IMG/VR virus record: IMGVR_UViG_2563366983_000010
DNA: 33,981 nt
Strand: one strand, 5' to 3'
Source: a virus
Lineage: Duplodnaviria; Heunggongvirae; Uroviricota; Caudoviricetes
The notes under the pieces are model-generated. The model did not search any database. It worked only from the letters and a program-made list of their open reading frames with translations, and was not told the DNA's origin. The translations under genes and the position numbers were made by a program. Shown in pieces: positions 19,313 through 29,432 of the stretch. Numbering within the stretch: the stretch's first letter is position 1; the number at the start of each line of letters is the position of its first letter.

Positions 19313-19338
19313 AAAAAAAGCCGGATTTACCGGCTTCA
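19313..19338 (-). terminator. Intrinsic-terminator-like hairpin plus U-run (GAAGCCGG-TAAAT-CCGGCTTTTTTT); copy 1 of a duplicated element
   Basis: Minus strand reads TGAAGCCGGTAAATCCGGCTTTTTTT, identical over 26 bp to 26879-26904. Confidence 0.5.
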
Positions 19339-20241: not shown

Positions 20242-21805
20242 GGCCGGTGTCCCCCAGCGCACGCGCCTTAAAGCACACCTCCGCCAGTTGCAGGGCAAAG
20301 TCGTCCGCGTTCAGCGTTTCCTGAAGCTCAGGCAGACGTTTCAGAAAGTCATCAAAACTGTCGCATTCCTGCGCCAGTGTCAGCACCGGGTTTGTGAACG
20401 CCTCGCCGGTTTTCTGCCAGTCACGCAGGGCATCATCCACCATCTGAGCCAGTTCGTCGGGGTGTTCCCGGTTCAGGGCGACGCGCTCGCGGTTCATCGC
20501 CATTTCACCTGACATTCCGGCAGAAACCGGATGCAGAACATCAGCCCCTTCGTCCGGTTCCGCCAGGCCGAACCGATCCCGCAGCTCCGATTCCTGAACC
20601 CGCATCCCCCGGTCAATCAGTGGCACCAGAGCATCAGTCAGCGCCTTCAGATCTTCGGCTTCACTGATACGCAGAACAACACGGGGATAGTGCGCCTGTG
20701 GCCCGTAGTTGGCCTCGATGTAGGGACGCACCAGATATTCATTCAGCGTGTTAGCCAGCTGTCGCGCGTCCCAGCGCACAATGTCCATGCGCACCTGATT
20801 GTGCACGTCCGCCTGTGAACGCGAACTGCCGTTATCTGTGGTCATGGTCTGCCCCAGTACGGCTTTACTGATTTGCGCATCGCACCATTCCGCCATTTCA
20901 CGGAACAGTGCGCCGCCGTTATTCCGGCTGGCGGTTTCCTTCATTTCCAGTTGCATGGACTGCGGAATGGCACACCCGGCATCCGAGGCAATGGAAGCAA
21001 TCGCATCAATCAGCACGCGGATTTGCTCCTCCGTGGCGTTGGGGCCGTATTTCCCCACTGTAACCGGAATGCCGAACTTTTCCGCAAATGCCCACCAGTC
21101 GCGCACGGTAAAGGATTTCAGCATGTACATCACCGCCACCAGACGGGCCAGACCGTTACGCAGCGGCAGACCGGATTTCAGGCGCGGCTGGTGAACAATG
21201 AATTTTCCCGGTGTCAGCGGTACGCCATCCACCGGTTCATCGTCAGTCAGCAGGCGGAACTGGCGCAGCGTGGTTTTTTCGGCTTTCAGAAAACGGGGAT
21301 CAACCCACTCATAATCACGGGGAATCCAGTGGTTTTTGTGGGTATTCCAGAGGATTTCACAGACCGCCACGCCTTTTCCCAGCCCGTCGAGCAAATCAAA
21401 CATCAGTTCGGGGATTTGCGGGGCTTCCATCAGTGCACGGATGGCGTCCGCCAGTTGCACGTCAGCATCGTCATCACTGGCGGCCACCACCACCGGTTCG
21501 ATACCCGCCACCGTCAGCTTGCGGGTGCGCAGCACCGAGGCGTAATGCAAATCACGTTCTTCCATCTCTTCGGCAAGGATAAAAAAATCACGCGTGATGC
21601 CGTCGGCGGCATTGCGCAGAATGCCTGCCAGCCTGCCGGGATTCAGCCCGGAAGCAATGCTGATGCCCGGCGAGGCCGAACGTACGCCAGCCTGACGCGG
21701 GCGGGCCTGTGCTTCATTGAGCGTCTCTTTTTTCAGGGTGTCGCCCTCACCGGTTGTCGGGTTCAGCAAATGACGAACATCCCCGGTCTGTTGTTTCAGG
21801 TTCAC
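20234..21805 (-). CDS. Portal protein (Mu H / gp29-like)
   Basis: 523 aa directly downstream of the terminase large subunit; apparent GTG start overlapping the terminase stop. Confidence 0.75.
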   Translation of the reverse strand: MNLKQQTGDVRHLLNPTTGEGDTLKKETLNEAQARPRQAGVRSASPGISIASGLNPGRLAGILRNAADGITRDFFILAEEMEERDLHYASVLRTRKLTVAGIEPVVVAASDDDADVQLADAIRALMEAPQIPELMFDLLDGLGKGVAVCEILWNTHKNHWIPRDYEWVDPRFLKAEKTTLRQFRLLTDDEPVDGVPLTPGKFIVHQPRLKSGLPLRNGLARLVAVMYMLKSFTVRDWWAFAEKFGIPVTVGKYGPNATEEQIRVLIDAIASIASDAGCAIPQSMQLEMKETASRNNGGALFREMAEWCDAQISKAVLGQTMTTDNGSSRSQADVHNQVRMDIVRWDARQLANTLNEYLVRPYIEANYGPQAHYPRVVLRISEAEDLKALTDALVPLIDRGMRVQESELRDRFGLAEPDEGADVLHPVSAGMSGEMAMNRERVALNREHPDELAQMVDDALRDWQKTGEAFTNPVLTLAQECDSFDDFLKRLPELQETLNADDFALQLAEVCFKARALGDTGHA

Positions 21806-23337
21806 AGTAAACCTCCCTCATTTTTCAGGCCGCGTGTCAGTTTCATCTGGCGGCGCGTGTTGCCTTCTTCCGGTTTCGCCGGGCGGTTCAGGCGGTGCAG
21901 CTCGTAACGGTGGCAGTCATCCTTGCTGGCAAGGAAGCCCAGGAAAATGGCCACAGCGGCATCGCCGTGACGCTTGCGGCCATCGCTACCTTTAGTACGG
22001 GCATCGTCAATGCCGGGAACACCACGCAGTAACTGAATGGCCCCGAGGTCATTGATCACGTCTTCATGCTTCGGAAGGATCAGCTCATCATCTTCAAACG
22101 CTGCACGGAAACGGGGCATGTTTTCGCGGTAGAACGCCACGGACAGCATCACCTGTTCCACCTCATCGCCGTACCGCTCCGCCGCCTGTTCTGCCAGATA
22201 CTGACCATTCCCCCGTGCATCCATTTTGATACCGTCACGACGGGGCAGACGATCGCAAAGCCAGAACAGCACCTGCTCCTGCTGTTTAAACGGCACATTG
22301 CCAAGCTCAACCAGGAACGGCACCTCGCGGGTGGTGTCATCGTTCACCGTCACAGGGGCCAGTACGGTCAGGTCCCCCGAACGCGCAAAGTCTTCCCCCA
22401 GACAGTGGCGCAGGTTCTTCGGGAGTTTTTCCAGCTCGGGGCGCACCACCGTTTCCAGCCATTCCCGGATATCTGCCCGGCGCTGGCTTTCCGTCAGTGC
22501 GTTAAATTCCGGTGTGCCGGTAAAGCGCAACACTTTCCCGGTGCCACGGGCCGCACGTTCACGCAGTGAGCGGGGGATATACGTGCCGCCGCCGTTTTTC
22601 GGGACGCAGTAGTATTCCTCCAGGGCGTCTTCGCGGGTGGCGGTATTTCTCAGCAGACCTTCTTTCCATTCCGCCTCGGCCTCCGGTGACCACACCATGC
22701 CGCGCACCTGACAGATACGCCGGTACAGCCCGTCATTGCAGGCATCATCCAGCGTGATGGTGTGAATACGGTAATCTTTTTTGCCTGCGCGGCTTTCCTG
22801 AATCAGCTGGTTAAACGGGTTGTCCACGCCGTCATGGGTGGAAATAAGGCGAACCTTACCGCCCCACGTGGTCAGTGGTGTGACCGCCTTGAGTACCTCA
22901 TCCAGTTGTTCATGAAACGCCGCTTCGTCGATGGTGACATTCCCCTGCATCCCGCGAATGTTGCCCGGATTACTGGACAGCGCCTTGACCTTAAATCCGC
23001 TGGCGAAGTACACGACGAACGTCAGAATGTCCTTGTCTTCGTCGGTGATCACTTCCTCGCGGATTTCTTCTGCTGCCGCATTAAACGCTTTCGCCCACAT
23101 CGCCACGGCGTCGATAAATTCGCGGGCCATCTCCTTATTCGAACCGATATAAAAGTGATCGCTCCCGCCGTTTTCCTTCTTCAGTGATGCGGTCAGTGCC
23201 GCATCTGCCGCTTCTGCCCAGGTTAAACCGGTACGGCGGGATTTCTCGGCGATTTTCAGTTTTGAATCATCCGCAACCCAGCGTTTCTGATACGGCAGCA
23301 GAACATCGGATTCACTGAACGTGTTCATCTGTGTCAT
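21802..23337 (-). CDS. Terminase large subunit (Mu gp28-like)
   Basis: 511 aa; size and position upstream of the portal gene. Confidence 0.8.
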   Translation of the reverse strand: MTQMNTFSESDVLLPYQKRWVADDSKLKIAEKSRRTGLTWAEAADAALTASLKKENGGSDHFYIGSNKEMAREFIDAVAMWAKAFNAAAEEIREEVITDEDKDILTFVVYFASGFKVKALSSNPGNIRGMQGNVTIDEAAFHEQLDEVLKAVTPLTTWGGKVRLISTHDGVDNPFNQLIQESRAGKKDYRIHTITLDDACNDGLYRRICQVRGMVWSPEAEAEWKEGLLRNTATREDALEEYYCVPKNGGGTYIPRSLRERAARGTGKVLRFTGTPEFNALTESQRRADIREWLETVVRPELEKLPKNLRHCLGEDFARSGDLTVLAPVTVNDDTTREVPFLVELGNVPFKQQEQVLFWLCDRLPRRDGIKMDARGNGQYLAEQAAERYGDEVEQVMLSVAFYRENMPRFRAAFEDDELILPKHEDVINDLGAIQLLRGVPGIDDARTKGSDGRKRHGDAAVAIFLGFLASKDDCHRYELHRLNRPAKPEEGNTRRQMKLTRGLKNEGGLL

Positions 23338-23915
23338 GCGCTAATCCCCAGAATGTCCCGTTTGATGGTGTCAGCCGCACCGCCTGACAGACCGCCCGTT
23401 CTGACCAGCTCTTCGGTTTTTTCTGCCATCTCCTGCGCAAACGCATCGCGGATCGCTTTCTCGCGTTTATGGCTGGTCATGGCGGCCGCTTCCAGACGCT
23501 GGGCAACCAGCGCCAGTTGGCCCAGCGCCTTCGGTGCAACGGGCTTGTCGTCTTCTGCCATCGACATGGACGTTTCAAAGGCCAGCGTTTTTACAAACTC
23601 CATCAGCAGCTTGCCGACGTCTGACGTCGGCGCGGAACCCAGCTTTGCCGCCCAGACCTCGGCCATCTCGCGGGAGGCGCGGATTTTGGCCCCGACTTTT
23701 TCCATACGGCTGGCATAGCGGTTTAAGCCCGTCCGGCTTAACTGCATCTCTTCCGGCAGGTTGTGTTCGTCAATCAGGGCGTTGATGGCTTCGCGGATTT
23801 CTTCCTGCGTGTGCCGCTTTTCCCGCAGCATCTGATGTAACTGCTCCCGGATGCTGTCCGGGAGTAAATCCACTTTGGAAAGACGGCCACGGGTGGGGCG
23901 TTGTTCATTTTCCAT
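23334..23915 (-). CDS. Terminase small subunit-like protein (Mu gp27-like)
   Basis: 193 aa, ATGA-coupled to the terminase large subunit. Confidence 0.55.
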   Translation of the reverse strand: MENEQRPTRGRLSKVDLLPDSIREQLHQMLREKRHTQEEIREAINALIDEHNLPEEMQLSRTGLNRYASRMEKVGAKIRASREMAEVWAAKLGSAPTSDVGKLLMEFVKTLAFETSMSMAEDDKPVAPKALGQLALVAQRLEAAAMTSHKREKAIRDAFAQEMAEKTEELVRTGGLSGGAADTIKRDILGISA

Positions 23916-24192
23916 CTTCAGACCTCTGCGTTTTCAGACCGGCGTATATTTCTTCACGAACGGACTGAATATCCTTACTTAACAGCTTCCACAGCCGCGC
24001 ACATGCCGGTGATGATCGCAGGGCGCGTTTCATGGGGGTATCCGGTGCATCCGGGTTCCAGGGCTTTCCTGTCTGTTTTTCGTATGCACGGACAATGGCG
24101 TTTTGCTCAATATCTGCCAGCACAAGGCAGTACGCCAGTTGCCGCACGACGGCCCGTTCTCCGCGACTTAACGGCTTCAGTTTTCGGGCCAT
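23905..24192 (-). CDS. Hypothetical late protein (95 aa)
   Basis: ORF in the late operon with overlapping start/stop to neighbours. Confidence 0.4.
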   Translation of the reverse strand: MARKLKPLSRGERAVVRQLAYCLVLADIEQNAIVRAYEKQTGKPWNPDAPDTPMKRALRSSPACARLWKLLSKDIQSVREEIYAGLKTQRSEDGK

Positions 24193-24194
24193 GC

Positions 24195-24488
24195 TCAGTC
24201 CCTCGCACGGGGTTTTTTAACGCCCGGAACGCTGGACAGGCCGTTTGCCACATCCTCGCCGCTGCCGGTGATTTCAGCCACGTAACAGCCGCCCACATCA
24301 GACAGACGAACCAGCCCCTGCTCGCGAAGCCATGCAAGCTGAGTGCGCACCACATCACGGGATACCTTATGACCGTAAGCCTGAAGGCAGGTCTGCAACA
24401 CGGATTCATTCGCGCTGTCGCCACAGTCCAGCAGGGAACGCAGCAACACAAGACGACGGTCTTCAGTGAGGATCTCTTTCATCGCCAT
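24195..24488 (-). CDS. Hypothetical late protein, possible winged-helix fold (97 aa)
   Basis: Segment RTQLAWLREQGLVRL is winged-helix-like; function unknown. Confidence 0.4.
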   Translation of the reverse strand: MAMKEILTEDRRLVLLRSLLDCGDSANESVLQTCLQAYGHKVSRDVVRTQLAWLREQGLVRLSDVGGCYVAEITGSGEDVANGLSSVPGVKKPRARD

Positions 24489-24793
24489 TAATTTTTTTCC
24501 TTTAACTCGTTCTCTAATAACAAATCGCTGATGCGGGATACCTGGCGGATGGATGGCCCCAGTTCTTTGATTTCTCCCCGCAGATTGCTGATATCCAGTT
24601 GCAGGCGGTGGAACTCATCACGGTCGGGTAAATGGTGTACCTGGCTTTCCATCACCGACACGCGGGAACGGAGTGAATCAAACTCTTCACGTTTGACGTA
24701 GGTTTTCGCCAGAATCAGCTGAAGCAGGTTTATTCCTGTCATCAGCAATGCCCACAGAATGGGCCAGTTGGCTCTGATCATTTCCCAGGACAC
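24488..24793 (-). CDS. Membrane-anchored coiled-coil protein (i-spanin-like or lysis accessory)
   Basis: 101 aa; N-terminal hydrophobic segment (WPILWALLMTGINLLQLIL) followed by a charged helical region. Apparent GTG start, with an alternative ATG at 24781. Confidence 0.45.
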   Translation of the reverse strand: MSWEMIRANWPILWALLMTGINLLQLILAKTYVKREEFDSLRSRVSVMESQVHHLPDRDEFHRLQLDISNLRGEIKELGPSIRQVSRISDLLLENELKEKN

Positions 24794-25005
24794 GTTTTCC
24801 TCCTGCGTTCCCGCATCTGCTGACAGTCAATACAGGTCACCACATCCGGCAGCGCCGCAAGGCGCTGTGCCGGAATAACGTTCCCGCAGTCATTGCAGAA
24901 GCCCCGGCTGTGGGGCGTTTCTTTTGTCCGTGTTTGCCAGGCTTTAACGACGCTCTGACGCTCGTTCAGAACCACTTCACTGATGCGATCGATTTCGTCG
25001 GTCAT
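24778..25005 (-). CDS. TraR/DksA-family C4 zinc-finger protein
   Basis: 75 aa with CNDCGNVIP...CIDCQ spacing typical of TraR/DksA zinc ribbons; ATGA-coupled to the upstream gene. Confidence 0.6.
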   Translation of the reverse strand: MTDEIDRISEVVLNERQSVVKAWQTRTKETPHSRGFCNDCGNVIPAQRLAALPDVVTCIDCQQMRERRRKTCPGK

Positions 25006-25610
25006 TTCAGCCCCGCAGACATTTTGTGACGGCTTGATTTGCTGTAACGGGCAAAGCCGTCAAGGGTTCTTACACCGAGATAGCCCAGCGCCGGGGTAAG
25101 CAACATCAGCGTGATATCCCAGTCCGGTGATGGCATATGCAGCGTGATACCTCTGGCACCGGCAATGGCTCCGGCAATCTGGCCGCAGGAGAGCAACAGC
25201 ACATAGGCCAGACTGCTGTAACAGGAAAGGCGGGCCAGCAGCGGGCGTGTCTGGCGCACATAGCTGTCCGTGGCGTTGTCACCATTGCGGATGGTTTCCT
25301 GCTGTTCGTGGTGTGCGGCCTGCTGGTCAGCCAGCACCAGCTTCTGCCGTTCCACCTCCAGCTGTTGCAGCTGAACTTTCAGGGTTTCCAGCTGCATCAG
25401 TTGCTCCGGTGACAGCATCACCAGTTTTTGTTCCAGAATGCGTTGCTGTTCAGCCACCGGCAGGCTTTCCCGGACGCTTTCCACCATACCGGCCACCGAG
25501 TCAGCAGCGGCAGATGTGCTGCCACCAAACCAGCGCCCGACGGAACGAATCAGCCCCGGCCCGGCTTTCAGCAGAACAGAGGCGATGCCTGAAAGGGTTA
25601 ACGGATCCAC
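25002..25610 (-). CDS. Coiled-coil protein with C-terminal transmembrane segments (lysis-associated?)
   Basis: Start placed at the GTG at 25608-25610, preceded by GGAGG at 6-nt spacing. Gln/Leu-rich helical region, then hydrophobic segments (LAYVLLLSCGQIAGAIAGA and ITLMLLTPALGYLGV). Confidence 0.4.
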   Translation of the reverse strand: MDPLTLSGIASVLLKAGPGLIRSVGRWFGGSTSAAADSVAGMVESVRESLPVAEQQRILEQKLVMLSPEQLMQLETLKVQLQQLEVERQKLVLADQQAAHHEQQETIRNGDNATDSYVRQTRPLLARLSCYSSLAYVLLLSCGQIAGAIAGARGITLHMPSPDWDITLMLLTPALGYLGVRTLDGFARYSKSSRHKMSAGLK

Positions 25611-26023
25611 GGGAAACCTCCATACAGATAACGCTGAAGACAGAGCAGACCGCCGCAACAACCACCACACAGCCAGAACACCGGATGCACCGGTGACATC
25701 ATCATCAGCGTGCTGAAGACGCAGCAGAAATATCCCAGCGCCCAGACCACCCATGACCACACGATAATGTGGCGACCAAAAGCCCGGTAACGGACCTCAG
25801 GCAGCAGGCGAAATGGCACATTCCCGAGGCTTGCGCTGTATGAAAACAACACCACCCCGGCAAAGGACAACAACATCAACACGAACGATCGCCAGCCACA
25901 TAACATGCTGATGATGAACATGCAGAGTGTCAGTCCGGCCAGCGGCCATGGGGTTCTCATCAGTCGGGAACAAAGCAGCCAGTCACACAGTTTTAAAATT
26001 TTGTTCATTACCTTTTTCCACAT
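25598..26023 (-). CDS. Polytopic Cys-rich membrane protein (holin candidate or membrane moron)
   Basis: Start at Met58 of ORF 25598..26194 (MWKKVMNKILKL...), 141 aa with about four hydrophobic segments and many Cys. Confidence 0.4.
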   Translation of the reverse strand: MWKKVMNKILKLCDWLLCSRLMRTPWPLAGLTLCMFIISMLCGWRSFVLMLLSFAGVVLFSYSASLGNVPFRLLPEVRYRAFGRHIIVWSWVVWALGYFCCVFSTLMMMSPVHPVFWLCGGCCGGLLCLQRYLYGGFPWIR

Positions 26024-26234
26024 TGAATTTTTCCCTGTACTTCTGGCACTGCCAGAAAATGTCCCGTGTATCCACGGAGTTCCAGCCACGCATGTAGTAG
26101 CTGGCGTGTGTGCCGTCATGGCCGGTATAGTCCAGCGGTTTCGGAGGCGGGCCTCCGGCCATGCGGTGTAAAACCTCCTGACGCAGGCGGTCACGCCGCC
26201 CGGCTTTCAGGGAGGCGTCCCAGCCTTTGCCCAT
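25983..26234 (-). CDS. Hypothetical hydrophilic protein (83 aa)
   Basis: ATG one nt after the endolysin stop, with GGGGG RBS; overlaps the start of the membrane-protein gene in another frame. Confidence 0.3.
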   Translation of the reverse strand: MGKGWDASLKAGRRDRLRQEVLHRMAGGPPPKPLDYTGHDGTHASYYMRGWNSVDTRDIFWQCQKYREKFNVEKGNEQNFKTV

Positions 26235-26235
26235 G

Positions 26236-26823
26236 TCACCCCCGCGTGGTGGACGGCGCGTTGTCGATGATTTCCAGACAGGCGTCGGTCAGTTTTTCCA
26301 TGCGGTTAAACCAGCCATTCAGGTATTTGCCCTGGGCGGGTTTGGATTTGATGATTTCGGCATAAAAGCGGGAACGACGGACAATGCAGCGGGTCAGCAA
26401 CCAGTCCGGGGTGGACAGGCTCACGGCCTTACGGGTACGCGGGCCGATGATGCCGTCAGCATCCACATCAGTGGCTTCCTGCAAAATTTTGATAGCTTTT
26501 TTAACGCCATGCTGAACCGCCGCATCGAACACAAACATCGCCACGCCATCAGGCCACTGGTCACATCCGGCAGGCAGCCAGTAATCGCGCCAGTAAATCT
26601 GCGCAACCTGTTCGCGGGTTAAATCCTTAATGCGGGTGTCGGGTTTACCATCGCCGTTGACATCGGTTTTGCCGTCAATCACACCGTCGCGGCGGTCAGA
26701 AATGCCGTATTTGGTTTCGCCGCCACGGTCTGTGGGGTCATTGACATAGACGCCTTCGATATCAGGACGCAGAATAAAATTCAGCGCATGTTCAAAGGCC
26801 GGAGAGAATTTTTGATTTTCCAT
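26236..26823 (-). CDS. Endolysin, GH108-like lysozyme domain with C-terminal peptidoglycan-binding domain
   Basis: N-terminal EGVYVNDPTDRGGETKYGIS motif typical of glycoside hydrolase family 108; C-terminal DGIIGPRTRKAV motif typical of PG_binding_3. No signal peptide or SAR segment. Confidence 0.75.
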   Translation of the reverse strand: MENQKFSPAFEHALNFILRPDIEGVYVNDPTDRGGETKYGISDRRDGVIDGKTDVNGDGKPDTRIKDLTREQVAQIYWRDYWLPAGCDQWPDGVAMFVFDAAVQHGVKKAIKILQEATDVDADGIIGPRTRKAVSLSTPDWLLTRCIVRRSRFYAEIIKSKPAQGKYLNGWFNRMEKLTDACLEIIDNAPSTTRG

Positions 26824-26878
26824 AAAAGCACCTGTGAAGCAGAGTTAAACGTGGTCTGCTTCATAGTGCCGGAGGCAC

Positions 26879-26904
26879 AAAAAAAGCCGGATTTACCGGC
26901 TTCA
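26879..26904 (-). terminator. Intrinsic-terminator-like hairpin plus U-run; copy 2 of the duplicated element
   Basis: Identical 26 bp to 19313-19338; lies 20 nt after the stop of the 159-aa secreted-protein gene and 55 nt before the endolysin ATG. Confidence 0.55.
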
Positions 26905-26923
26905 TTGAATTAAGGGAAGATAA

Positions 26924-27403
26924 CTACTCATCTCCTTTGATGGAGCAATCTATTACCATATCGTTACCCATCTTGAGAAATTTGGTTTGCATGAGAAAAC
27001 CCTGTATCACGTCAGTTAACCCATACCCTTCAACTTTTGTAGCTGAAACTACCATGTCAATAATTCGTTTCTGCTGCTTCTCTGTTAGTTCACCAATTGC
27101 TGACTCTGCAACCCGCGAGCATGCTACAAAGGAAGACAACACACCTGAAGGATTGTTTTCAAAATCCTTTACAGTCGTCCTTGAGCTGACGACTTTATTA
27201 TTGATCGTAAATACCCCGAATTTGCTGTGAGCAGTTTCAGTTCCACCGTTCTTAATAGAATCGCCTCCCTTAAGAGGCATCCAGCTATTTAGTGCAATGA
27301 AATCTTTTTCTGTCAGACGTTTTTTGATGACATCTTCAGCTGGCAACTTTGCCGCATTAGCGCAAAATACGCTCAGTAAAAGTATAAGAGGAAAGTATTT
27401 CAT
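26924..27403 (-). CDS. Secreted/periplasmic protein with cleavable signal peptide, unknown function (159 aa)
   Basis: N-terminus MKYFPLILLLSVFCANA-AKLP is a classic Sec signal peptide. ATG overlaps the stop of the Mor-family gene (ATGA); AT-rich relative to neighbours; followed by the terminator hairpin. Confidence 0.6.
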   Translation of the reverse strand: MKYFPLILLLSVFCANAAKLPAEDVIKKRLTEKDFIALNSWMPLKGGDSIKNGGTETAHSKFGVFTINNKVVSSRTTVKDFENNPSGVLSSFVACSRVAESAIGELTEKQQKRIIDMVVSATKVEGYGLTDVIQGFLMQTKFLKMGNDMVIDCSIKGDE

Positions 27404-27810
27404 GACTCATCCTTAAACAGTTGCATTTGATATTTTCCACGCTCCAGCCTTCGCATTCTTTTGATAGCTTGATATACCGTTTTGTATGTCACTTTGTAAC
27501 GCTGCACCAGTTCCGCTACGTTTTTCCCATCAAAATCACGCCAGATGCGCATGTCTCTGATAAGATTTTCCAGTATTTTCCCTTTAGGAACATATACCTG
27601 AATCCCACCGATATGATTACAAATCGCCACTACCAACTCAAGGGAATAGACCGGGTTAACCCCAAGCCTTATCAGTTCCTGTCGCAACAGAGCATTCAGC
27701 TCTGAAAGTAGCGCCGGATAAACATATTTTTCCTGATAATCGTGAAGATATTCCAGAACGGTGTCGTCCCGGAAGTCTTCGAATAAATCCTGCTCTTTCA
27801 TCTGTTTCAT
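27400..27810 (-). CDS. mor: Mor/C-family transcription activator (middle/late gene activator)
   Basis: 136 aa with C-terminal helix-turn-helix (NVAELVQRYKVTYKTVYQAIKRMRRL); ATGA-coupled to gemA as mor is in Mu. Whether it acts as Mor, C, or both cannot be decided from sequence. Confidence 0.7.
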   Translation of the reverse strand: MKQMKEQDLFEDFRDDTVLEYLHDYQEKYVYPALLSELNALLRQELIRLGVNPVYSLELVVAICNHIGGIQVYVPKGKILENLIRDMRIWRDFDGKNVAELVQRYKVTYKTVYQAIKRMRRLERGKYQMQLFKDES

Positions 27811-28358
27811 ACAGCAATTCTCCCGCTGTTTCGTGCGCGGGCATACGCACTGGTCAGTGCATCATAGCCGCGCAGCTCCCGACCGGTTTCGCTCACAGGT
27901 AAAGGCACACCATGTCGGGCAAAGGCTTCACGGATGCAGCGCATATGCCACTGTTTGAGCGTTTCGAGCACAACCTGCAACGATTCCCCGTGACACCAGG
28001 CCAGTGTGGAAACCCCCTGACCGCCATTACGTCTGGCCGTCAGGCGCTCAACGTATTTGTCCAGCGCGGCGTCGCTGATATCGGAAACGAAACCATCAAG
28101 GAACATCTGCTGCCAGATTTTGTAAATCTTCTCGCGTGGTGTGACATGCCCCTTAAAGCGACGGCGGGGATGTTTTTTCTGCTTCTTAAAACCGCGCTTT
28201 TTCATGGCATCGAGCACTTGTTCCAGTTGTGCAACGGACAGCTCGCGGCAACTGGTTTTGCCCGTGCACTGCACCAGAAAAGCTCGGTAAGTGTCATCGT
28301 CGAGTTGCAACTCCCGACGGGCAACATGAATTAATTTAATCAGGGATGTGCGGCTCAT
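27807..28358 (-). CDS. gemA: GemA-like early protein (Mu gp16 family)
   Basis: Start at Met16 of ORF 27807..28403 (MSRTSLIKLIHVARRELQLDDDTYRAF), AAGGAG RBS; sits directly upstream of the Mor-family gene. Confidence 0.65.
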   Translation of the reverse strand: MSRTSLIKLIHVARRELQLDDDTYRAFLVQCTGKTSCRELSVAQLEQVLDAMKKRGFKKQKKHPRRRFKGHVTPREKIYKIWQQMFLDGFVSDISDAALDKYVERLTARRNGGQGVSTLAWCHGESLQVVLETLKQWHMRCIREAFARHGVPLPVSETGRELRGYDALTSAYARARNSGRIAV

Positions 28359-28725
28359 TATGTCCCATCTCCTTAATGCAGTGTTTTTCGACCCATGCCA
28401 CACGAGCAGAATTCAGGTGACATCTGCCAAGTCTGCATTCCTCATGATAGTGCGCTCTACTTTCATTGAAAGGTAATAATTCATCCAACTCGTTCGCGAT
28501 AAAATCTGCACGTAATTGTTCTAATATATCTTCGGTATCCACTCCGATTTCGTCAAAATAACGACAAGCATTTGCACATAATCCTGAATATTGAACAAAT
28601 ATTTCACCCTCTGTTTCTGGTGCACCATTTTTTAACCACTGGTTATAGGCAACATAAAAATCATAAAGATGTTTTCTGGTGCTGGCGGATGTGGATTTAA
28701 TTTCATTTTTCTCTGCGTTATTCAT
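28336..28725 (-). CDS. Hypothetical early protein, Cys/His-rich C-terminus (129 aa)
   Basis: Start at Met12 of ORF 28336..28758 with AAGAGG RBS at 9-nt spacing; C-terminal HYHEECRLGRCH...HC could bind metal. Confidence 0.45.
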   Translation of the reverse strand: MNNAEKNEIKSTSASTRKHLYDFYVAYNQWLKNGAPETEGEIFVQYSGLCANACRYFDEIGVDTEDILEQLRADFIANELDELLPFNESRAHYHEECRLGRCHLNSARVAWVEKHCIKEMGHNEPHIPD

Positions 28726-28900
28726 TTCGTAATACCTCTTCGCAATAAAAGATTTCACTGGGATAATGTTTTTGTATGCGCTCCATCACCTGCATACAGG
28801 CCTGCTCTGTGGGCCAGATTTTTTCCGTTACCGGGATGGCATCGCAGGCATCATTCCCGCAGGTGCCAACCAGCAGGACAAAGCCAATTGACTTAACCAT
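28718..28900 (-). CDS. Small Cys-rich protein with hydrophobic N-terminus (60 aa)
   Basis: Start at Met23 of ORF 28718..28966 (MVKSIGFVLLVGTCGNDACD...); possible signal or lipoprotein-like leader; six Cys. Confidence 0.35.
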   Translation of the reverse strand: MVKSIGFVLLVGTCGNDACDAIPVTEKIWPTEQACMQVMERIQKHYPSEIFYCEEVLRNE

Positions 28901-29432
28901 GCTCGCTGACTTCCTGTGTTGTCGCCGGAACCGGTGAATAATCAAGAATGAGATAACGCACCACATGGTCGGTGATATTCCAGCCGCTTAAACTGCAAAT
29001 AAAACGCCCCAGCCGTAAATCGATATGCGCCATCGCAAAACGAGGCATTCCCTGTTTGCACATCTCGTCATCCACTTCTGCAACGATGTGAACCGACTCG
29101 CAGGTCAGTACGCCTGTCGCAAATTCTTTTGCCAGTGCCGGAATGGCGTTGCTTTCCAGCCAGGGCAACGAACGACGGAACGTGCACCATTTAGCATCAT
29201 CAACAGCGGGTTGCTCCGTTGCGTTTCGTCTTACTGGCGGCGTCTGACGAGGGCGCGGAACGTCATAAAATCCGTTGCTTTCAGTGAGAACTCCGGCATC
29301 AACCGCATCACGCAGGAAATACACCATTGAGGAAGGTGGCATATTCATTTTTTCAGCCAGAACGCCACAGGTCAGACGCCCGTAAGCCCGTAATAATGTG
29401 CTGACACCGTTCAGAACTTTTGCATCAACCAT
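28893..29432 (-). CDS. Hypothetical early protein with N-terminal winged-helix-like region (179 aa)
   Basis: ATG at 29430-29432 with AAGGA RBS; N-terminal TLLRAYGRLTCGVLAEKMNMPPSSMVYFLRDAVDAGVL resembles a wHTH. Confidence 0.5.
   Translation of the reverse strand: MVDAKVLNGVSTLLRAYGRLTCGVLAEKMNMPPSSMVYFLRDAVDAGVLTESNGFYDVPRPRQTPPVRRNATEQPAVDDAKWCTFRRSLPWLESNAIPALAKEFATGVLTCESVHIVAEVDDEMCKQGMPRFAMAHIDLRLGRFICSLSGWNITDHVVRYLILDYSPVPATTQEVSEHG

Follow-up and report, generated by a model that had tools for sequence, protein, structure and literature searches.

A TraR-like zinc-finger protein encoded directly upstream of a DUF2730 gene in a Mu-like Escherichia coli prophage

Introduction

IMG/VR record IMGVR_UViG_2563366983_000010 is a stretch of 33,981 nucleotides (nt) of tailed-phage DNA (Caudoviricetes), referred to here in its full length as the window. 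Its minus strand carries, at 24778..25005, an open reading frame (ORF) for a protein of 75 amino acids (aa) with four cysteines. An original prediction, made without database searches, had placed this protein in the TraR/DksA family, whose members bind RNA polymerase (RNAP) in its secondary channel, and had located its gene in a late operon. The locus poses two questions: does the protein carry the features by which TraR acts on RNAP, and would it do so late in phage development, amongst genes for lysis and packaging?

The mechanism of TraR, which involves the secondary channel, reprograms transcription in a stringent-response-like manner and is independent of guanosine tetraphosphate (ppGpp), was shown in 2022 for TraR of the F plasmid and five phage homologues (PMC9239242). 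In a cryo-electron microscopy study of 2019, three parts of TraR were distinguished: the N-terminal helix spans residues 2-27, the globular domain residues 28-57 and the C-terminal helix residues 58-73, with Ser2 positioned 4.3 Å from the active-site Mg2+ (PMC6970531). The determinants of activity are a DxxDxA tip, of which D3 and D6 are required for function, the C4 zinc site, the interaction of R48 with the β′ rim helices, that of R49 with β′Si3 and that of the C-terminal helix with β Si1 (PMC9239242). By analogy with these proteins, we consider it probable, at roughly 0.75, that the 75-aa protein is a TraR-type RNAP factor acting by a TraR-like mechanism.

Family membership and predicted fold

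The gene and its parts are located as follows.

24778..25005, minus strand: TraR-family coding sequence, 75 aa (ATG at 25005..25003, TGA at 24780..24778)
24982..24999, minus strand: tip motif D-E-I-D-R-I, codons 3-8 (family consensus DxxDxA), with D3 and D6 retained and A8 replaced by I
24925..24996, minus strand: predicted N-terminal helix, residues 4-27, from the secondary structure of an AlphaFold2 (AF2) model
24823..24897, minus strand: C4 zinc ribbon C37/C40/C58/C61, including I44 and R48 (codon 24862..24864), from profiles and alignments
24793..24831, minus strand: predicted C-terminal helix, residues 59-71, with the conserved Q62 and E66, from the AF2 model and alignments

The translation is MTDEIDRISEVVLNERQSVVKAWQTRTKETPHSRGFCNDCGNVIPAQRLAALPDVVTCIDCQQMRERRRKTCPGK. 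Its cysteines follow the pattern C37-x2-C40-x17-C58-x2-C61 (CxxC-x17-CxxC), confirming the C4 zinc-ribbon spacing first noticed in the original prediction. The Pfam model PF01258 (zf-dskA_traR), proposed at that time as a check, recognizes the protein with an E value of 7.2e-11; it scores 42.3 bits, well over the gathering score of 24.9. The NCBIfam model TIGR02419 ('phage/conjugal plasmid C-4 type zinc finger protein, TraR family') is matched over profile positions 1-64 of 64, at 62.3 bits compared with a cut-off of 59.7, and the PHROG family phrog_54 ('DksA-like zinc-finger protein') over residues 1-73 (E 2.3e-20). In a sequence search of the PDB the best matches were the TraR chains 5w1s_M (E 2e-6) and 6n57_M (E 3e-6), which rank above DksA.

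An AF2 model, calculated with an alignment of 98 sequences as input, has a predicted local distance difference test score (pLDDT) of 76.7 and places helices at residues 4-27, 46-51 and 59-71. These correspond to the TraR segments TraR_N (2-27), TraR_G (28-57) and TraR_C (58-73). When the model was compared with the PDB using Foldseek, TraR in its complex with RNAP (6n57_M) came first, with a probability of 1.00, 70 of 72 columns aligned and a template modelling (TM) score of about 0.5; DksA–RNAP complexes and YbiI followed. In a library of viral structures the best matches were DksA-like zinc fingers. The TraR/DksA assignment thus holds in Pfam, NCBIfam, PHROG, the PDB sequence search and the structural comparison. 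Within the family, the protein is TraR-like and not DksA-like in architecture: it is 75 aa long and falls far short of the DksA equivalog models (29.6 against 289 bits for NF008045, 28.7 against 115.5 bits for TIGR02420).

A late activator of the Ogr/Delta type was considered and rejected, PF01258 being the sole Pfam family for which the protein passes the cut-off.

The protein is 100% identical to RefSeq entry WP_000128966.1 of E. coli STEC388. The reading frame is under purifying selection, since the dN/dS ratio across 13 different alleles from the E. coli clade is about 0.25 (mean nonsynonymous divergence, dN, 0.035; mean synonymous divergence, dS, 0.140).

Residues shared with TraR and departures from it

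A word-index protein search returned close relatives only, with at least 66% identity. An exhaustive search of representative sequences gave 451 matches at E ≤ 1e-3, from which 98 relatives of TraR size were aligned with MAFFT. Six columns of this alignment are invariant (D6, C37, C40, R48, C58 and C61) and four more are conserved in at least 90% of the sequences (D3, I44, Q62 and E66); the 75-aa protein has all ten. D3 and D6 occupy the same positions as in F TraR (M-T-D3-E-I-D6), and the 31 residues from D6 to the first cysteine, C37, match the spacing in F TraR and are the commonest value in the family.

Two departures stand out. A8 of the DxxDxA motif is absent, being replaced by an isoleucine that is fixed in the E. 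coli clade. In addition, the three TraR residues at the β′Si3 interface, E46, R49 and K50, have become A46, L49 and A50. Changing any one of these residues to alanine in TraR at least halves activation; E46A and R49A also impair inhibition mildly, and K50A leaves it unchanged (PMC6970531).

A conserved position upstream of DUF2730

The gene that follows encodes a protein of family DUF2730. With an alignment of three DUF2730 proteins we gathered 107 DUF2730 loci, 80 from viral sequences and 27 from genome contigs of Pluralibacter, Kluyvera, Raoultella, Klebsiella, Serratia, Brenneria, Aeromonas, Neptunomonas, Oceanospirillum, Enterovibrio and Vibrio. A TraR-like ORF lies directly upstream of DUF2730 in 79 of the 80 viral loci, the remaining one being cut by the contig end. 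The genome contigs carry it intact in 25 of 27 cases; one is again cut by the contig end and one, from Kluyvera, is frameshifted. TraR-like sequence is therefore present at all 105 loci that have upstream DNA, across Enterobacterales, Aeromonas, Neptunomonas and Vibrio.

These loci yield 72 distinct orthologues. The C4 site, I44 and R48 are present in all 72, position 6 is aspartate in 68 and glutamate in four, Q62 is kept in 71, and position 66 is glutamate in 62 and aspartate in ten. Loss of the acidic tip, which the original prediction had named as an observation that would count against it, is seen neither in the 75-aa protein, where D3 and D6 are kept, nor at position 6 of any syntenic orthologue. 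RNAP-binding residues are thus under selection in the DUF2730-adjacent branch, which argues against a slot that merely needs some zinc ribbon. L49, one of the departures from TraR, is likewise a property of this Mu-like branch, being found in 66 of the 72 proteins.

The tip is not uniform across the branch. In 23 of the 72 distinct proteins it takes the form MT[KR]AFDRAS, with D3 changed to K or R; this is the Klebsiella, Raoultella and Pluralibacter type (loci L026-L076 and L087-L094 of our collection). The Neptunomonas proteins (L100-L102) read E-E-Q-L-E-L-A at this point, that is ExxExA, a form of the tip motif resembling that of Gre factors. The frameshifted copy, in Kluyvera intermedia (NZ_JAKCNS010000076.1; L088 2790..3020), has a single frameshift after about codon 17, MTDAFERASNLETTDRD, with the remainder in another frame; the locus is a pseudogene or else was misassembled.

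Comparison with characterized systems

Among proteins of solved structure the closest relative, in sequence and in predicted fold, is F-plasmid TraR (PDB entries 6N57, 6N58 and 5W1S). The two proteins are of similar length (73 and 75 aa) and share the three-element architecture, the C4 spacing, the positions of D3 and D6 with the distance from D6 to the first cysteine, and I44, R48, Q62 and E66. F TraR, too, is encoded amid structural genes in a long operon, tra. The differences are an identity of only 28%, the presence of A8, E46, R49 and K50 in TraR where the 75-aa protein has I, A, L and A, and the fact that F is a conjugative plasmid and not a phage.

Orf82 of phage P2 (NP_046793) bears on the isoleucine at position 8. 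It is about 75 aa long, and its translation begins MPDNVDFIQ, which gives D3-x-x-D6-x-I8 exactly as in the 75-aa protein. Orf82, reported to lack A8, nevertheless binds RNAP like TraR, inhibits rrnB P1 with a half-maximal inhibitory concentration (IC50) of 250 nM compared with about 50 nM for TraR, and complements a dksA deletion (PMC9239242). We therefore regard I8 as tolerated variation and not as grounds for exclusion. Orf82 differs in belonging to the early Pe operon together with replication genes and in retaining R49; its identity to the 75-aa protein is 29%. The change at position 3 in the Klebsiella-type branch also has a counterpart, since the translation of Gp34 from Xenorhabdus bovienii (MSKALDLA...) has K3. 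Gp34 binds RNAP as TraR does, has an IC50 of 415 nM at rrnB P1 and complements the dksA deletion (PMC9239242).

Another TraR homologue from a phage is Orf73 of lambda, which loses its activity when D3N or D6N is introduced; the protein slows host growth and raises the burst size (PMC9239242). By analogy, we consider Orf73 the best-supported model for the biological role of the 75-aa protein, with the reservations that it is encoded in the early pL-side exo-xis region, has a perfect DxxDxA motif and both R48 and R49, and is 28% identical. The TraR of phage VP882 causes a growth arrest for which its DxxDxA motif is needed; a partner, QisA, forms a complex with it and intensifies the arrest.

Two transposable phages offer positional counterparts. 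Burkholderia phage KS10 was reported in 2008 to have a 74-aa dksA/traR C4 zinc-finger gene, gp7, in the interval between endolysin and small terminase (PMC2628397). Judged by position and description, this is the same genomic location in a Mu-like phage, in a betaproteobacterial host. In Mu itself, gp24 (NP_050628; NC_000929 11524..11718) is encoded directly upstream of gp25, a DUF2730 protein, and has the CxxC-x17-CxxC pattern; aligned with the TraR-size family using hhalign, it gives a modest match over the ribbon (probability 67%, E 5e-5). It is unlike the 75-aa protein in its length of 64 aa, in having N6 for D6 and V for R48, and in ending four residues after the last cysteine, with no C-terminal helix. 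Mu gp24 has no match to PF01258 and falls in a separate PHROG family, phrog_3260. Judged by its sequence, it is unlikely to act in the secondary channel of RNAP, and it may be a decayed or re-purposed relative of TraR.

E. coli DksA shares the zinc-ribbon family, and its segment R-R-L-E-A-R-P resembles Q-R-L-A-A-L-P of the 75-aa protein, with leucine at the position of TraR R49. In the 75-aa protein the acidic tip is followed by arginine (D-R), which we take to mirror D74-R75 of DksA, and L52 presumably occupies the position of R129, the residue of DksA that contacts ppGpp at site 2. DksA differs in its 151 aa, its two-helix coiled coil and its need for ppGpp.

Genomic setting and timing of expression

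The window is a Mu-like transposable E. coli prophage. All of its long ORFs lie on the minus strand, in the order transposase, AAA ATPase, Gam, GemA, Mor, endolysin, small ORFs, gp27-type small terminase, large terminase, DUF935 portal, head morphogenesis protein, protease and gpT major head protein. The prophage DNA is present at 94-99% identity in 46 of 5,426 complete E. coli genomes. A search of a phage collection for near-identical DNA, using 23300..27900, gave no match; when proteins are compared, Klebsiella phage Kp4866-3 is the closest phage (48.6% identity) and a group of Vibrio Mu-like phages comes next (35%). The gene order around the TraR-like gene, from endolysin to terminase, recurs in E. 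coli STEC388, Klebsiella phage Kp4866-3, Vibrio phage 1.142.O and Mu. The features that surround the TraR-like gene are listed here in the direction of transcription.

27400..27810, minus strand: transcription activator of the Mor family, presumed to activate the operon (Pfam E 3.9e-29)
26924..27403, minus strand: 159-aa ORF with a hydrophobic N-terminus, phrog_38744, between Mor and the hairpin
26879..26904, minus strand: hairpin, copy 1, 56 nt upstream of the endolysin start
26236..26823, minus strand: endolysin with GH108 and PG_binding_3 domains (Pfam), first gene of the operon
25983..26234, minus strand: 83-aa ORF, 1 nt after the endolysin stop
25598..26011, minus strand: 137-aa ORF (136 aa in RefSeq; start about 26011), overlapping the 83-aa and 202-aa ORFs
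25002..25610, minus strand: 202-aa membrane ORF, phrog_1544 (GTA_holin_3TM match, E 8.6e-4, below the Pfam cut-off)
25002..25005, minus strand: ATGA overlap of the 202-aa ORF stop with the TraR-like start, from the sequence
24799..24804, minus strand: AGGAGG, ribosome-binding site of the DUF2730 gene, inside TraR-like codons R67-R69
24488..24793, minus strand: DUF2730 protein, family of the Mu gp25 releasin, with GTG start at 24793..24791 (Pfam E 1.3e-30)
23334..23915, minus strand: gp27-type small terminase (Pfam), in an overlapping gene chain
21802..23337, minus strand: large terminase, TerL (Pfam), in the same chain
19313..19338, minus strand: hairpin, copy 2, identical to copy 1, 50 nt upstream of the protease start (ATG 19263)

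From the endolysin start at 26823 to the large terminase at 21802 the genes overlap or abut, with the same boundaries in RefSeq. The TraR-like gene and the DUF2730 gene overlap by 16 nt, as they do in the RefSeq annotation. Further downstream the DUF2730 stop and the next start share TAATG, a 95-aa ORF overlaps gp27, and gp27 and TerL share ATGA. These overlaps suggest that the TraR-like gene is probably translationally coupled to both of its neighbours.

The original prediction had set the gene between lysis-associated membrane proteins and the terminase genes, which is roughly right, except that the next gene is DUF2730 and not terminase. DUF2730 and two small ORFs precede the small terminase, so the TraR-like gene lies inside the lysis-proximal part of the operon and not at its border. 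As for the membrane proteins, the 202-aa ORF is the only one with a holin-like Pfam match, the sub-threshold one listed above, and no spanin or holin was positively identified between endolysin and TraR-like gene. The three ORFs in that interval all match phrog_2121 (284 positions), each at a different part of the profile; the corresponding genes may be fused in other phages, or the family model may span several genes.

Placement in a late operon is supported by the gene overlaps and by an identical module ahead of the endolysin and protease genes. This is a 26-nt hairpin followed by a run of T, TGAAGCCGGTAAATCCGGCTTTTTTT, of which the window holds exactly two copies where none are expected by chance. 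The sequences downstream of both copies are similar, with a possible -10 element (CACTAT and CATACT, respectively). The hairpin is unchanged base for base in 36 of 86 collected loci, including both STEC388 copies and those of Klebsiella-type phages whose DUF2730 is only about 58-64% identical to that of the window. A scan of the minus strand from 21000 to 29000 for the sigma-70 consensus gave no promoter, which is consistent with dependence on an activator. We propose the hairpin, by analogy with Mu, as a candidate module that would combine the terminator of the preceding unit with a late promoter dependent on the activator Mor. It is comparable to the Plys and PI modules of Mu late transcription. 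The two copies probably delimit the operon that contains the TraR-like gene, from about 26823 to 19477, with copy 2 marking its end. Judged by this anatomy, the placement in a late operon is well supported; late expression of the TraR-like gene, dependent on Mor/C, would follow by analogy with Mu.

The STEC388 prophage, collinear in all other respects, does not have the 159-aa ORF, so that Mor and the hairpin are direct neighbours there; the ORF looks like a moron-type insertion.

Proposed mechanism and alternatives

In the reading that we favour, the N-terminal helix would enter the secondary channel of host RNAP and bring the acidic tip, with D3 and D6, near the active site. R48 would grip the β′ rim helices, the C-terminal helix would contact the β lobe/Si1, and the protein would act without ppGpp. 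Promoters with short-lived open complexes, such as those of rRNA and ribosomal-protein genes, would be inhibited, freeing RNAP and resources for the phage. Expressed, presumably, from a Mor-dependent late operon for lysis and packaging, the protein would act in the late lytic phase. Given A46, L49 and A50 together with I8, we expect efficient binding, somewhat weaker inhibition than that by F TraR, and weak activation of promoters.

Several observations weigh against this reading. The β′Si3 interface residues are unconserved and A8 is replaced, the margin over the TIGR02419 cut-off is only 2.6 bits, and the identity to F TraR, at 28%, is below the 32-49% of the tested homologues. Confidence in the AF2 model is moderate and its superposition on TraR has a TM score of about 0.5 and a root-mean-square deviation of 4.5 Å, so that the arrangement of the helices relative to one another is tentative. 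The five tested phage homologues all fall outside the Mu-like DUF2730-adjacent branch. They are, moreover, all encoded in early or regulatory regions (PMC9239242) and not in a late operon, which makes a role at a late time point an extrapolation; the late timing itself rests on analogy with Mu.

A protein that binds RNAP might boost the Mor-dependent late promoters of the phage itself instead of shutting down host rRNA synthesis, as a co-factor comparable to F TraR on tra promoters. F TraR is reported to raise transcription in vitro significantly at promoters of the F element (PMC9239242). The conserved hairpin/promoter module that precedes the operon and recurs before the protease gene fits such a role, as does the want of a sigma-70 consensus promoter there. 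We consider it unlikely, since the residues that support activation by TraR through β′Si3 have all been replaced and a factor encoded within the activated operon could provide positive feedback only and not the initial activation. The protein might alternatively serve lysis, mainly by partnering DUF2730 or the membrane protein encoded before it, and bind RNAP only as a secondary function or no longer. The strict synteny at all 105 loci, the overlap of the gene with both neighbours and the complex of VP882 TraR with a phage partner are in keeping with this, and Mu gp24, which keeps the ribbon without D6, R48 or the C-terminal helix, suggests a function for the ribbon by itself. The RNAP-contact residues (an acidic residue at 6, R48, Q62 and an acidic residue at 66) are nevertheless present in 71 or 72 of the 72 orthologues, which would be hard to explain if binding to RNAP were dispensable, and the gene order of phage late operons is conserved for many reasons. 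Furthermore, the study of Mu lysis by Chamblee et al. assigns the role of releasin to gp25, the DUF2730 protein, and does not mention gp24 (PMC9239132). A role mainly as a partner in lysis is very unlikely in our view.

That the protein is a generic C4 zinc-ribbon binder of nucleic acid, for example in packaging, is hardly credible. The gp27 and TerL genes are nearby, and there are weak sub-threshold Pfam matches to generic zinc-ribbon models (DZR, E 6e-4). The match to TraR-specific models is, however, full-length and includes the N-terminal helix and tip; three genes separate the TraR-like gene from the small terminase, and no DNA-binding family scores above the Pfam threshold. A more speculative proposal, to which we give low odds, builds on the TraR-type mechanism. 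The DUF2730-adjacent, L49-type TraR proteins could form a distinct late subfamily of Mu-like phages, which work with a membrane-tethered neighbour (DUF2730 or the 202-aa ORF) in the manner of VP882 TraR and QisA, and thereby tie lysis timing to the shutting down of host transcription; on this view Mu gp24 would be a remnant in which only the partner-binding ribbon is left.

Implications

The identification of this gene as a TraR relative is already known, because RefSeq and curated models name it, the mechanism is published and the position in KS10 was reported in 2008. The RefSeq names are 'TraR/DksA C4-type zinc finger protein' and 'TraR/DksA family transcriptional regulator'. As structures and biochemistry have already established how the family works, five phage homologues among them, the value of the assignment as a discovery is small. 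Our interest lies in the Mu-like branch, which keeps the gene at a fixed spot in a late lysis/packaging operon across several gammaproteobacterial orders, whereas the tested homologues are early or regulatory. The phenotype of a deletion, in burst size and lysis timing, would tell whether reprogramming of RNAP pays late in infection. The branch also naturally lacks the β′Si3-contact residues of TraR and thereby provides a natural test of the separation of inhibition from activation.

Minor observations

Antisense to the TraR-like gene, the plus strand at 24901..24916 carries a terminator-like hairpin, GCCCCGGCTGTGGGGC, with a T-rich tail. The terminator scan returned 13 sites, where chance would give 9.3 ± 3.7. 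Read on the coding strand, the hairpin has no T-run; it may well be a chance occurrence.

In E. coli 06-00048 the same segment (93.9% identity) occurs both on the chromosome (NZ_CP015229.1) and on the 136-kb NZ_CP012497.1, which was counted as a plasmid. Some genomes have up to three copies of the prophage, as expected of a transposable phage.

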